Shown: positions 170 to 4,231 of the stretch, piece by piece
Layout: each line of letters begins with the position of its first letter
How positions within the stretch are numbered: position 1 is the first letter of the stretch
DNA from: Candidatus Sericytochromatia bacterium
Lineage (GTDB): Bacteria; Cyanobacteriota; Sericytochromatia; S15B-MN24; UBA4093
Reading direction: 5' to 3'
DNA: 12,907 nt
Assembly: GCA_036676495.1 (NCBI GenBank)
Contig: JAKFCT010000005.1
Location: 1-12,907 of the forward strand
The notes under the pieces: generated by a model
What the model was told of the DNA's origin: nothing
The model's input: only the letters and a program-made list of their open reading frames with translations
Database searches by the model: none
Position numbers and translations under genes: made by a program

Positions 170-253
170 GCTGGGGACTTTCCCCTTTCCCGACGCGATG
201 CGCTAAGTTTAGTCAACTCTTAACGGCAGATTTACCGAATTCCGGCGCGACCT

Positions 254-261
254 CCCGATAA
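254..261 (+). promoter_or_regulatory. Putative sigma28(FliA)-like -10 element for the LysM gene
   Basis: CCCGATAA, 7/8 to the GCCGATAA consensus, 48 nt upstream of the ATG. No canonical TAAA -35 seen. Confidence 0.4.
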
Positions 262-267
262 GACCTT

Positions 268-302
268 TGGATGGAAGGTAAACCAACGTAGACCGAGGGA
301 GG
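268..302 (+). repeat. Left arm of an inverted repeat flanking the LysM gene (pairs with 1327-1357)
   Basis: 268-281 TGGATGGAAGGTAA is the exact reverse complement of 1344-1357. 285-291 AACGTAG pairs with 1335-1341. 297-302 GGGAGG pairs with 1327-1332 (one G-U). Confidence 0.85.
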
Positions 303-309
303 AAACACC

Positions 310-1326
310 ATGAGCATCGAAGTCAAGAAGTTCAGCAACGCCCTGCTCGCCCAGCCTGTCCGCAAGGAAGCGGAAGCGACCAAGCCCCAGCAGACCGCGA
401 CCGCGGCTCCCGCGACCCAGGACAAGGCGCAGCTGACCGGCCGCTACACCGTTCAGGTGGGTGACACCCTCGGCCACATCGCTCAGAAGTTCTACGGCAA
501 GGCCTCGCGCTGGCCCGAAATCTACGAGGCCAACCGCGACAAGCTCCGCCACCCCGACATTCTCTTCCACGGCACGACCCTTCGGATTCCCATGGACCGC
601 ACGGTGAAGCCGGCTCCCAAGACCGAAGCCCCCATCGTGAAGTCCGAGCCCAAGGTTGAAGTCGAGCCCCAGACCGAAGCCAAGCCCAAGCGTGACTGGG
701 ACCTGGGCGGCGTCGCCCCCAAGACCCCCGTCGTGACCGTCCCCAAGGCCGAGCCCAAGACCGAGCCCAAGGTCGAGCCCGCGGTCGAGCCCCAGTACCC
801 CACCGTCGGTGAGTACGTCAAGGAGCGCTTCGACAACAGCGTCGACACTTTCACCACCGGCCTGCACGGTGCGGCCGAGATCGCGTTCCCTCCCCTGCTG
901 CTCGGCGAGATGGCGGCCATCCAGGCCAAGCACCGCAAGAATGCCCTCCAGCAGATCTGGAACCTCCCGATGGATCCCCAGGGCAACTGGAAGATCAAGG
1001 CCGCGGAGATCAGCGACAAGGCTTCGGCCGCCGCTTCCAAGGAGATCGGCCAGCTCCCCGGAGTTCGCGCCATCCGGGCCACGGGTGAAGCCATCGCCGA
1101 CGGGGCGATGTACGTGGGCCGCGGCGTGAAGGCCGCCGGTGAAGCCGTCGTCGACGGAGCCGTGGCCGCCGGTGAGGCGATCGCCGATGGCGCCATCTAC
1201 GTCGGAGACGCCATCGCCACCGGAGTCCGCGAGACCGGCAAGGCCATCGACCGCGGCGTCACCGAGACCCGCAAGGGCGTCGGCGGCTTCTTCCAGAACT
1301 TCGGCCGCTGGATCGCCGGAAACTAA
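310..1326 (+). CDS. LysM peptidoglycan-binding domain protein with Pro/Glu/Lys-rich linker and C-terminal amphipathic 11-mer repeats
   Basis: LysM motif YTVQVGDTLGHIAQKFYG...WPEIYEAN...PDILFHGTTLRIP (nt 445-591), SD GGGAGG at 297-302, strong GC3 bias, PKTEPKVEP linker, GEAIADGA-type repeats. Confidence 0.9.
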   Translation: MSIEVKKFSNALLAQPVRKEAEATKPQQTATAAPATQDKAQLTGRYTVQVGDTLGHIAQKFYGKASRWPEIYEANRDKLRHPDILFHGTTLRIPMDRTVKPAPKTEAPIVKSEPKVEVEPQTEAKPKRDWDLGGVAPKTPVVTVPKAEPKTEPKVEPAVEPQYPTVGEYVKERFDNSVDTFTTGLHGAAEIAFPPLLLGEMAAIQAKHRKNALQQIWNLPMDPQGNWKIKAAEISDKASAAASKEIGQLPGVRAIRATGEAIADGAMYVGRGVKAAGEAVVDGAVAAGEAIADGAIYVGDAIATGVRETGKAIDRGVTETRKGVGGFFQNFGRWIAGN

Positions 1327-1381
1327 CCTTCCCCCTACGTTCCTTACCTTCCATCCATCCTTCCATCCATCCAAACCATCC
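1327..1381 (+). repeat. Pyrimidine-rich CCAT/CCTT repeat tract; right arm of the inverted repeat flanking the LysM gene
   Basis: Only one G in 55 nt. CCTTCCATCCAT x2 (1347-1370) and five CCATCC copies. Complementary to 266-302. Confidence 0.85.
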
Positions 1382-3437: not shown

Positions 3438-4172
3438 GTGAGACAGCGAGGCATTCGCAACCTGATGGACCTGACGGTGGTCACCCGGCGCGGCGTCACC
3501 ATGGGAGACGTCTCGGACGTGCAGATCGATCCGGCCGAGCAGCGCGTGCTGAAGCTCACCGTCGACTGGGTCAGCGACCTCCGGCAGGTCTACGGCCCGG
3601 ACATGGACCTTCCGTTCTCGCAGATCGCCAACTTCGATCCGCATCAGCTGGTGGTCGCCGACGAGATCGCGGAGACGGCGGGCCTGGATCTCCTGAACTA
3701 CGGGGACGACGGCCTCTTCCTCACGGCCACCCAGCTGCTGGATCATCCCGTCCGCACCCAGGAGGGGCGCGACCTCGGCACGCTGGCCGACGTCTTCTTC
3801 GACGAGGACGACGGCGCCATCATCGGGTACGAGGTGGTCTCGGAGCGCTCCGAGGCCGAGCATACCCGCTCCTTGATCCTCTCACCGTCGACCGACCTCG
3901 AATGGCGCCAGGAGGCGGTCATCGTCCCGGATCGCGTGAAGACCGTGAGCGTCAGTGCCACTCCCGACCTGAGCCGGCGGGAAGCCCAGGACCAGCAGGA
4001 GGATCTGGACTACGTCTTCGAGGCGGACGAGCCCGACAAGCGGACGGACGACCCGGATCTCGGCTACAACGACGAGCTGAACAGCGACGGGCTGGTGCCG
4101 GACCCCAACGTCTATCCCTACGGGCACCGGGTGGGCTTCATCGAGGAGGACCCGGACTCCCTGCTGGGTTAG
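3438..4172 (+). CDS. Tandem PRC-barrel domain protein with acidic C-terminal tail
   Basis: Two PRC-barrel-like repeats (LMDLTVVTRRGVTMGDVSDVQIDP; LLDHPVRTQEGRDLGTLADVFFDEDDGAIIGYEV). GTG start at 3438 after GAGGAG. Alternative in-frame GTG at 3369. Confidence 0.85.
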   Translation: MRQRGIRNLMDLTVVTRRGVTMGDVSDVQIDPAEQRVLKLTVDWVSDLRQVYGPDMDLPFSQIANFDPHQLVVADEIAETAGLDLLNYGDDGLFLTATQLLDHPVRTQEGRDLGTLADVFFDEDDGAIIGYEVVSERSEAEHTRSLILSPSTDLEWRQEAVIVPDRVKTVSVSATPDLSRREAQDQQEDLDYVFEADEPDKRTDDPDLGYNDELNSDGLVPDPNVYPYGHRVGFIEEDPDSLLG

Positions 4173-4231
4173 CTGCGGATACTTCTCGGTTAGCCGCGAA
4201 TACTTCTGGGTTAGCCGCGGGCGCTACTTTC
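4164..4231. repeat. Three imperfect 21-bp tandem repeats overlapping the PRC gene stop codon
   Basis: GGTTAGCTGCGGATACTTCTC (4167-4187), GGTTAGCCGCGAATACTTCTG (4188-4208), GGTTAGCCGCGGGCGCTACTTTC (4209-4231). Confidence 0.9.

Follow-up and report, generated by a model that had tools for sequence, protein, structure and literature searches.

Known examples of bacterial mRNAs whose 3′ UTR pairs with their own leader are very few. The type I toxin mRNAs are among them: in hok and aapA1, long-range 5′-3′ pairing keeps the full-length mRNA translationally inert, and these short toxic-peptide genes also have an antisense RNA partner and depend on 3′ processing for activation. Two non-toxin cases, icaR and hbs, were found in the literature. 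The 3′ UTR of Staphylococcus aureus icaR mRNA is described as carrying a UCCCCUG motif that pairs with its own Shine-Dalgarno (SD) sequence, blocking translation and forming an RNase III substrate; by the same account, the starting collection held 3′ UTRs of more than 100 nt, and icaR was picked from it because its 3′ UTR is long (Ruiz de los Mozos et al. 2013, PMC3868564). For the hbs mRNA of Bacillus subtilis, a 14-bp pairing of the 5′ UTR with the 3′ UTR is reported to modulate how RNase Y cleaves the leader (Braun et al. 2017, PMC5737220). Anti-SD-like words hundreds of nucleotides away from a ribosome binding site are described in a recent preprint as pairing with that site, promoting decay and blocking initiation, and as being depleted from natural genes (Gill et al. 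2025 preprint, PMC12697547).

The locus described here lies in a window of 12,907 nucleotides, the whole stretch of DNA analyzed, from a Candidatus Sericytochromatia metagenome-assembled genome of 4.14 Mb and 66% G+C, and encodes a 338-aa LysM-domain protein, unlike the short toxic peptides of hok and aapA1. The LysM gene resembles icaR in being a non-toxin gene with a pyrimidine-rich anti-SD word in the 3′ UTR that is complementary to its own SD. It differs from icaR in that this word directly follows the stop codon in a short tail of approximately 60 nt rather than lying in a long 3′ UTR, in that two further helices would extend the pairing up to the predicted 5′ end, and in that its tail, a G-poor tandem repeat, could pair in several registers. 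As in hbs, a 14-bp leader/tail duplex would form within a monocistronic mRNA, the LysM unit being monocistronic by prediction, and by analogy it could conceivably protect the 5′ region; unlike the hbs pairing, which as described overlaps the RNase Y site and not the SD (PMC5737220), the predicted LysM pairing includes the SD itself. The earlier note on this DNA had called such pairing unusual for a gene that does not encode a toxin, which was overstated given the precedents described for icaR (PMC3868564) and hbs (PMC5737220). In contrast to the depletion reported in the preprint (PMC12697547), the LysM anti-SD word stays conserved in one position, which points to use rather than avoidance.

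Leader and tail of the LysM gene

The LysM coding sequence occupies positions 310 to 1326 of the forward strand, as do all features below, and ends with TAA at 1324 to 1326. Its product, for which orthologues were found, consists of a LysM domain (residues 46-94), a Pro/Lys-rich linker, and a conserved C-terminal part of unknown family that gave no usable match against the protein atlas. Upstream is a predicted alternative-sigma promoter (231-261) with TTTACC at 231 to 236, a 19-nt spacer and CGATAA at 256 to 261, the latter within a predicted −10 box, CCCGATAA, at 254 to 261 that we take to resemble sigma-28/SigD boxes. A genome scan found the pattern TTTAC..CGATAA(A/T), followed by an SD and an open reading frame, upstream of 11 genes, and it is retained upstream of the LysM orthologues. 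GGATGG was considered as a regulon-wide leader motif and rejected, as it is absent from the leaders of all 10 further genes that have a TTTACC..CGATAA promoter. Downstream of the gene, an intrinsic-terminator-like hairpin followed by GGGTGTTTCT lies at 1388 to 1411, and the orthologues have a hairpin at the same place. With promoter and terminator both predicted, the LysM gene is best explained as a single-gene transcription unit. An RNA-library contig (run X8) from a relative approximately 90% alike begins with adapter sequence attached at a point 10 nt upstream of the ATG, within helix 3 (see below); this could reflect processing or a start site farther downstream and, if transcription does begin there, the leader arms would be absent from that RNA. 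An Rfam scan of positions 150 to 1650 returned no match.

Leader and tail share three colinear complementary blocks comprising 27 pairs (14 + 7 + 6), one of them G-U. In helix 1, TGGATGGAAGGTAA at 268 to 281 (as RNA, UGGAUGGAAGGUAA), at or adjoining the predicted first transcribed bases, faces its exact 14-nt reverse complement, UUACCUUCCAUCCA, at 1344 to 1357. Helix 2 is formed by AACGTAG (AACGUAG) at 285 to 291 and its perfect partner CTACGTT (CUACGUU) at 1335 to 1341. Helix 3 pairs the SD, GGGAGG at 297 to 302 and 7 nt upstream of the ATG, with the anti-SD-like CCTTCC (CCUUCC) at 1327 to 1332, with the G-U at G299-T1330. The right arm begins at the first base past the TAA and the left arm 6 nt past CCCGATAA, and the duplex stops short of the terminator hairpin, leaving both arms bracketed by the predicted −10 box (254-261) and hairpin (1388-1411). 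The blocks and the placement of their arms relative to stop codon, −10 box and terminator had been put forward in the earlier note, and direct reading of the sequence bears them out. The calculated duplex energy of 262-309 versus 1327-1381 is −40.5 kcal/mol (RNAduplex).

The tail itself is a G-poor, C-rich, unstructured tract (1327-1381) with a single G in 55 nt. Windows as G-poor and C-rich number 19 genome-wide, overlapping and representing about a dozen loci, and the LysM tail is the longest. Positions 1347 to 1372 contain 2.2 copies of a 12-nt tandem repeat, CCTTCCATCCAT, and because of this repeat the left arm has a second pairing register, at 1359 to 1368 for GGAUGGAAGG. Neither the gene-model scan nor the G-poor-tract scan found another gene in the genome with this leader/tail architecture.

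Folding and chance expectation

Both the minimum free energy fold (−484.5 kcal/mol) and the centroid fold of the 1151-nt LysM mRNA contain all three helices. The leader alone folds at only −5.2 kcal/mol with a fully open centroid, and the tail alone is also unstructured. The energy of −40.5 kcal/mol was reached by 6 of 24,994 random genomic 55-mers paired with the LysM leader, and by 15 of 24,990 random genomic 48-mers paired with the LysM tail. Among dinucleotide shuffles of the tail, 0/400 matched either the run length or the energy of the native pair (z −6.2). When the 48-nt leader and 55-nt tail of 2913 crude gene models were compared, the longest perfect complement was 14 nt in two models, 11 nt in three, and 10 nt in nine; the two models with a 14-nt run are the LysM gene and another that contains a dispersed repeat. 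Ranked solely by duplex energy, the LysM gene falls at about the 7th percentile of the 2913 models and is no outlier, because G+C-rich flanks pair easily; since duplex energy does not discriminate at 66% G+C, run length and shuffles were used instead. By these measures the leader/tail complementarity exceeds chance in its own genome. The panhandle predicted in the earlier note is kept in both full-length folds, and it beats shuffled sequence and genome-wide background alike.

Dispersed repeats or the ends of a mobile element were ruled out as the source of the arms, as the 14-mer of helix 1 is found in the 4.14-Mb genome only at its two arms. The 10-mer core of helix 1 has 17 genomic occurrences, in unrelated contexts.

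Conservation among orthologues

In seven close orthologues, 160 of 175 pair cells (91.4%) hold standard pairs, compared with 38 to 51% when the partner is slid. The cells that are not Watson-Crick comprise 15 G-U, five A-C and 10 others. Three pairs have changed on both sides, a number reached by 7 of 500 shuffles. Helix 3, which contains the SD, has 97.5% of its cells paired in the seven close orthologues, and it varies only by C/U opposite G, so that pairing of the sense-strand RNA is kept and complementarity of the DNA is not. In helix 2, one A-U pair has become C-G by a double change in L026, and by positional alignment the helix decays in L002, L003 and L028. Helix 1 has a U-U mismatch in three of six sequences, again by positional alignment. 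In L003, the leader carries GGATGGATAG and the tail CTATCCATCC. The GGATGG core of the helix 1 5′ arm is kept in all orthologues with a leader of the LysM type.

At the family level, L004, L006 and L008 combine a GGATGG-type (GGAUGG) leader with G-poor CCATCC-type (CCAUCC) tail repeats. Their tails also contain exact anti-SD words: GTCCTCC in L006, ATCCTCCC in L008 and CCTCCC in L004. Where L006 has a C-G pair (GGAGGAC/GTCCTCC), L008 has U-A instead (GGGAGGAT/ATCCTCCC). Against shuffled tails, the cognate duplexes score z −1.0 (L004), −2.8 (L006) and −1.9 (L008), and their longest runs, 8 nt, were equalled by 128 to 166 of 400 shuffles. Pairing in these three is not clearly above that of composition-matched shuffles, and the signal is largely one of composition. 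A downstream paralogue in L004 has the leader GGGGTGGGG and a G-poor CCCCA-repeat tail ending CCCCACCCC, with a leader/tail run that is not above shuffles (reached by 127/400). L030 and L031 keep the leader GGATGG and have no CCATCC tail, and L005 has neither, implying that the pairing is dispensable in some lineages. For the distant homologues L009 to L018, the longest leader/tail complements are 5 to 9 nt, nothing notable.

The expectation that complementarity would be conserved among orthologues holds for the seven close ones, compensatory changes included, but not for distant relatives, in which pairing is not clearly better than that of shuffles or the tail element is missing. A comparison of sense and antisense duplex energies, over the orthologues with both arms (counted as eight, with L001, L002, L003, L004, L006, L026, L027 and L028, or as the nine rows from L001 to L008), did not favor the sense strand, the antisense being equal or better in all orthologues compared. 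These energies are uninformative because purine-rich versus C-rich arms give many antisense G-U registers.

A proposed self-closing mRNA and its alternatives

We consider it probable that 5′-3′ UTR pairing of the icaR/hbs kind masks the SD and the 5′ end of the LysM mRNA. From the predicted promoter and terminator we infer that both arms lie on one RNA, and their nested arrangement would favor pairing in cis in the cell. The G-poor, pyrimidine-rich tail would pair with the unstructured, purine-rich leader through helices that span from approximately the first transcribed base to the SD. On an mRNA still being synthesized, or under steady initiation, the SD would be occupied and terminating ribosomes would cover helix 3, so that the mRNA remains open. 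When initiation falls, the tail could zip onto the leader, blocking the SD and burying the 5′ end. The closed mRNA might be kept as a silent store or, as for icaR, offer RNase III a double-stranded substrate; a gene for RNase III is present in the genome. Alternatively, the effect may run in the other direction, with the pairing shielding the leader from nucleases, as for hbs. The best reading is that fold-back of the LysM mRNA would be a rare but already known mode of translational self-throttling.

It is possible, though unlikely, that the leader is instead a two-site CsrA operator formed by GGAUGG and the GGA in the SD, that the tail is a separate element such as a rut site, and that their complementarity is incidental. 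A rut site is a long, C-rich, G-poor and unstructured RNA, a description fitted by the composition of the tail (1 G in 55 nt) and by its lack of structure, and the genome encodes Rho (contig C10, 118078-118293). It also has fliW-csrA beside a flagellar gene, with csrA at 34132-34284 of contig C23, and the leader of its flagellin gene holds ACACGGATGTT and AAGGAGGA, a near-consensus CsrA site. PMC7652899 gives a SELEX consensus for CsrA, RUACARGGAUGU, and describes the FliW-CsrA-hag circuit; the LysM leader resembles that of hag in that a GGAUG word lies close to its 5′ end and its SD contains a GGA. The GGA words of the LysM leader are GGAUGGAAGG at 269 to 278 and GGGAGGA at 297 to 303, the latter overlapping the SD, and GGATGG is retained in L030 and L031 despite their lack of a complementary tail. 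However, in the genome itself and across the genus the match runs far past the GGA words (GGUAA/UUACC and AACGUAG/CUACGUU) and shows compensatory changes, and GGATGG occurs in 0 of 10 leaders of the other same-promoter genes. High-affinity CsrA sites are described as displaying GGA in a hairpin loop (PMC7652899), but the LysM GGA words lie outside predicted hairpin loops and, unlike in hag as described there, it is exactly the two candidate CsrA sites that pair with the tail. The intrinsic-type terminator is no more than 7 nt past the tract, which leaves little room for Rho.

Tail pairing does not exclude binding of CsrA, and the two could coexist. We regard as distinctly unlikely a combined arrangement in which the tail acts as a conserved multi-register zipper, closing the mRNA over the span between its initial transcribed base and the base that directly follows the stop codon, and, since it covers both candidate CsrA sites of the leader, would also compete with FliW-CsrA control as a cis-acting RNA antagonist or mimic of CsrA. 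Each terminating ribosome would melt the anti-SD helix and pass the SD to the next initiation event, and the mRNA would lock shut after the last ribosome departs. If true, such competition would act on a cell-wall gene belonging to a sigma-28-like regulon, in a relative of the cyanobacteria that is not photosynthetic.

There is a slim chance that the tail acts in trans, as a 3′-UTR-derived sRNA or on a second mRNA, pairing with the LysM leader and perhaps with other purine-rich leaders. The same complementarity would suffice in trans, the layout, an unstructured seed with a terminator hairpin after it, is like that of 3′-UTR-derived sRNAs, and the methods of the icaR study include an mRNA-dimer assay (PMC3868564). 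Against this, the 14-mer target has no second copy in the genome, and three nested colinear helices with an anti-SD word right at the stop codon suit a panhandle formed in cis. Of similarly low probability is the absence of any function, with a slippage-prone pyrimidine microsatellite in the tail matching a purine-rich leader by chance. The tail is indeed a tandem repeat whose units and copy number vary among close relatives, and shuffled tails of distant orthologues pair nearly as well as the real ones, but leader and tail arms are kept where the flanking intergenic DNA has diverged, and the G-poor tail recurs over four genera's worth of orthologues. Because selection is reported to act against anti-SD-like words in genes (PMC12697547, preprint), their retention by the stop codon needs a reason.

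Least probable, with a very small chance of being correct, is phase variation by DNA inversion, in which the arms would be inverted repeats bounding a segment that can flip, turning the whole ORF around with respect to its promoter. Imperfect inverted repeats do flank the ORF just inside promoter and terminator, and recombination sites would likewise show concerted change of both arms, but a Pfam scan of the 12.9-kb contig's 16 long ORFs found no recombinase family, the orientation is the same in all nine both-arm assemblies (our own, L002, L003, L004, L006, L008, L027, L028 and L029), contigs of four runs, which drop rare variants, contain no strand-changing joint, helix 3 DNA identity is down to 3-4/6 in L028 and L002 with pairing kept there via G-U, and the arms contain the SD. 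The low rank already given to inversion in the earlier note is upheld by the contigs, the orthologous assemblies and the gene content of the contig.

The self-closing LysM mRNA would add to a very small group. Comparative support is limited for icaR, hbs and the toxin mRNAs, whereas the LysM arms are conserved genus-wide with some compensatory change, and a looser form of them persists at the level of an uncultivated Sericytochromatia family. A literature search on Sericytochromatia untranslated regions found nothing relevant, and no RNA biology is on record for the lineage. The LysM tail indicates that anti-SD words, which genes are reported to avoid in general, can be retained at a fixed place. 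With an anti-SD word at the first base past the stop codon and the predicted 5′ end taken up by the other arm, the gene is a clean test case, which could show whether terminating ribosomes and 5′-end sequestration are coupled in the mRNAs of bacteria.

Predicted leader–tail pairing in the LysM mRNA

The LysM CDS (310..1326, forward strand) is flanked on both sides by terminator-like hairpins and encodes a 338-aa protein in which a Pro/Lys-rich linker connects a LysM domain to a conserved C-terminal part that domain and protein searches assigned to no family. Direct reading of the sequence confirmed the three complementary blocks that the earlier note had described between the 5′ UTR (leader) and the 3′ UTR tract at 1327-1381 (tail). 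Helix 1 (268-281/1344-1357) and helix 2 (285-291/1335-1341) are perfect reverse complements, and helix 3 pairs the SD GGGAGG (297-302) with CCTTCC (1327-1332) with one G-U. The arms are also placed as described: the right arm starts at the first base past the TAA stop, the left arm starts 6 nt past the box CCCGATAA (254-261), and 30 nt separate the end of the duplex from a terminator-like hairpin at 1388-1411. The duplex energy of 262-309 against 1327-1381 is −40.5 kcal/mol (RNAduplex), the leader alone and the tail alone are predicted to be essentially unstructured, and in a full-length fold of the kind that the note had proposed, here of the 1151-nt transcript 262-1412, all three helices are present in both the MFE (−484.5 kcal/mol) and the centroid structure. 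Between stop and terminator, the tail contains a single G in 55 nt. It includes a 12-nt tandem repeat (1347-1372, 2.2 copies), which lets the leader sequence GGAUGGAAGG also pair perfectly in another register, at 1359-1368.

The box CCCGATAA is part of a promoter-like pattern, TTTAC..(15-21 nt)..CGATA(A/T), that is conserved upstream of LysM orthologues and lies upstream of 11 genes in the genome, mostly encoding secreted, peptidoglycan-binding/hydrolase-like, or Gly-rich membrane proteins. Its −10 part is, we presume, similar to sigma-28/SigD boxes, and the 11 genes appear to make up the regulon of an alternative sigma factor whose −10 box is sigma-28-like. Sites include window 231-261 and, on other contigs, C9:15716, C14:129842, C14:95345(-), C23:2385(-), C23:45137(-), C57:51615, and C70:29332, among others, in the form TTTACC, 17-19 nt, CGATAA, and frequently preceded by CTTAAC/GCTTAGC. 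The next gene downstream (1597-2487; 296 aa, rich in Ala and Lys, its C-terminus hydrophobic and Gly-rich) is separately promoted, with its own GCCGATAA box at 1556-1563. It has no Pfam or NCBIfam match, is similar to two genes behind the same promoter type (C57:51679 and C70:29420), and its UTRs exhibit no mutual complementarity.

Chance, repeats, and DNA inversion

The genome background was the 4.14-Mb assembly (66% G+C), of which the window is one entire 12.9-kb contig. An energy of −40.5 kcal/mol was reached by 6 of 24,994 random genomic 55-mers paired with the LysM leader and by 15 of 24,990 random genomic 48-mers paired with its tail. In the shuffle comparison called for in the earlier note, no dinucleotide-shuffled tail out of 400 equalled the real one in run length or in energy (z −6.2). 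The genome scan that it also proposed was performed on 2913 crude gene models, built from long ORFs that are G+C-rich at third positions and given the start favoured by the SD. The measure was the longest perfect pairing of the 48 nt upstream of the start with the 55 nt past the stop; a 14-nt run was found in two genes, 11 nt in three, and 10 nt in nine. The other gene with a 14-nt run (C82:106655-109816) bears a dispersed GCCGCGGGCGCT repeat, which explains its match. By duplex energy alone the LysM gene is unremarkable among the 2913 models (approximately the 7th percentile), since duplexes form readily from G+C-rich flanks and terminators. Equally G-poor, C-rich tracts occur at only about a dozen loci genome-wide, and the LysM tail is the longest.

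A dispersed repeat was ruled out as the source of the arms: the 14-mer of helix 1 has no further occurrence in the genome, and the 10-nt core is found 17 times, in unrelated places. With 56 occurrences on each genome strand, GCCGCGGGCGCT is a dispersed intergenic repeat, often behind ..CTGCCTTTCGAAACA, and it ends a set of three 21-nt tandem units (CTGCTGGGTTAGCTGCGGATA-like) at window 4161-4225. Another G-free CT-rich tract, of repeated TCCTTCCTCTCCTCTCCC, lies at C85:22954-22999 and is directly followed by its purine complement GGGAGGGACGG.

That the arms are instead inverted repeats of an invertible DNA segment, which the earlier note rated as less likely, we consider very improbable. The order promoter, leader arm, ORF, tail arm, terminator is identical in all nine assemblies with both arms, none of the contig's 16 long ORFs belongs to a recombinase family, and in contigs of four public runs, although these hide rare variants, the arms show no joint that changes strand. 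Inversion also fits poorly with helix 3, where the variation is of the G-U type and the SD is one of the arms; the comparison of sense and antisense duplex energy did not discriminate between selection on RNA and on DNA.

Conservation among LysM orthologues

The taxonomic family is represented by only 10 species genomes in the collection searched; together with two further collections, 13 distinct orthologous loci were available. Six close relatives (78-83% protein identity) were aligned full-length with the LysM mRNA. Standard pairs occupy 160 of 175 pair cells (91.4%), compared with 38-51% after the 3′ partner is shifted by 1-3 columns. Both-side changes occur at three pairs, a value reached by 7 of 500 shuffles in a lenient control (structure read from one member sequence, rows related). 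Non-Watson-Crick cells comprise 15 G-U, 5 A-C, and 10 others. Helix 3 varies only by C/U opposite the G of the SD, which preserves sense-strand RNA pairing, and its DNA complementarity drops to 3-4 of 6 in two relatives. Helix 1 suffers a U-U mismatch in three of six sequences, and helix 2 is decayed in L002, L003, and L028. Alternative registers partly make up for these losses: two perfect 10-nt partners exist in L002, helix 1 is lengthened to GGAAGGTAAAC/GTTTACCTTCC in L028, and L003 has GGATGGATAG in its leader and CTATCCATCC in a distal repeat. Against shuffled tails the close relatives score z −4.0 to −6.2, and L003 z −2.3.

The conserved complementarity sought by the earlier note holds for close relatives and fades beyond them. 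Three distant loci from two other genera (L004, L006, and L008; 40-51% identity) have leaders opening with GGATGG(G/A)ATGG directly past the −10 box and a G-poor tail of CCATCC-type repeats followed by a terminator. They contain exact anti-SD words (CCTCCC in L004, GTCCTCC in L006, ATCCTCCC in L008), and between L006 and L008 a C-G pair with the SD flank is exchanged for U-A. Their cognate duplexes score only z −1.0, −2.8, and −1.9, respectively, against shuffled tails, and their 8-nt runs are frequent among shuffles. Conservation at this distance is of a purine-rich leader facing a pyrimidine-only tail, in no fixed register. L030 and L031 possess the GGATGG leader and no CCATCC tail, and L005 neither, so the leader motif is of some value by itself, and orthologues can do without the pairing. 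Nothing comparable was found in homologues outside the family.

In L004 (reverse-complemented; 2763-2832 and 3697-3776), a downstream tandem paralogue has a leader with GGGGTGGGG and a tail of G-poor CCCCAA repeats ending CCCCACCCC, plus TTTCCTCCCCC: the same architecture in other letters, with pairing not above composition-matched shuffles. A leader pyrimidine word (CUCUC or CCCCUCC) able to pair locally with the SD is present at L006:1389-1437, L008:257-305, and L005:2461-2498(-). With a weaker or missing tail element, the SD may thus be masked locally; the local SD folds of these three loci are no better than shuffles.

A possible switch for untranslated mRNAs

On balance, we think it probable that a functional leader–tail RNA pairing exists, and are less confident of the direction of its effect. 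The best-supported reading is that the tail would pair with the leader in cis, possibly also in trans, hiding both the 5′ end and the SD. Since the anti-SD starts at the first base past the stop codon, any ribosome that terminates must cover it; the tail is also the last part to be transcribed, so the first ribosomes load in its absence. From this we infer that the duplex would form mainly on mRNAs no longer translated. It would switch these off, leading to storage or to exposure of the duplex to RNase III. These steps derive from the anatomy and from two precedents. In Staphylococcus aureus icaR, base pairing of the 3′ UTR to the SD prevents initiation and supplies a substrate to RNase III (PMC3868564), and a 14-bp 5′/3′ UTR duplex modulates RNase Y action on Bacillus subtilis hbs (PMC5737220). 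Such pairing on non-toxin mRNAs is thus already known, and the earlier note's view of it as unusual is overstated. Distant anti-SD-like words are reported to be repressive and generally depleted from genes (PMC12697547).

In metatranscriptome run X8, contigs of an approximately 90%-alike relative cover 313-575 and 764-1335 and continue into the tail. One has an Illumina adapter fused to the 10 nt preceding the ATG, at approximately position 301, within helix 3, and may start at a discrete RNA 5′ end; as a single contig from a different organism, with DNA carry-over possible, it carries little weight either way. Cleavage of the SD duplex would be consistent with the icaR model, and a transcription start would contradict an mRNA closed by leader–tail pairing for that RNA.

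The genome also codes for flagellin, fliW-csrA, Rho, and RNase III. The tail covers two elements of the leader, which are also the two GGA-containing elements expected for CsrA (PMC7652899), and interplay of tail pairing with FliW-CsrA is possible. A FliW-like ORF lies immediately 5′ of csrA (C23:~33900-34300), and the flagellin leader (C29:16938-17345(-)) contains ACACGGATGTT, near the CsrA SELEX consensus, and AAGGAGGA at the SD, which suggests a Bacillus-like FliW-CsrA-flagellin circuit in this Sericytochromatia genome. The C-rich, G-poor tract looks like a rut site, yet a hairpin terminator follows directly.

The LysM locus would represent a new, comparatively well-conserved case of 5′-3′ UTR pairing in an uncultivated lineage, distinguished by an anti-SD adjoining the stop codon, a duplex extending to the predicted 5′ end, and a multi-register tail made of repeats.
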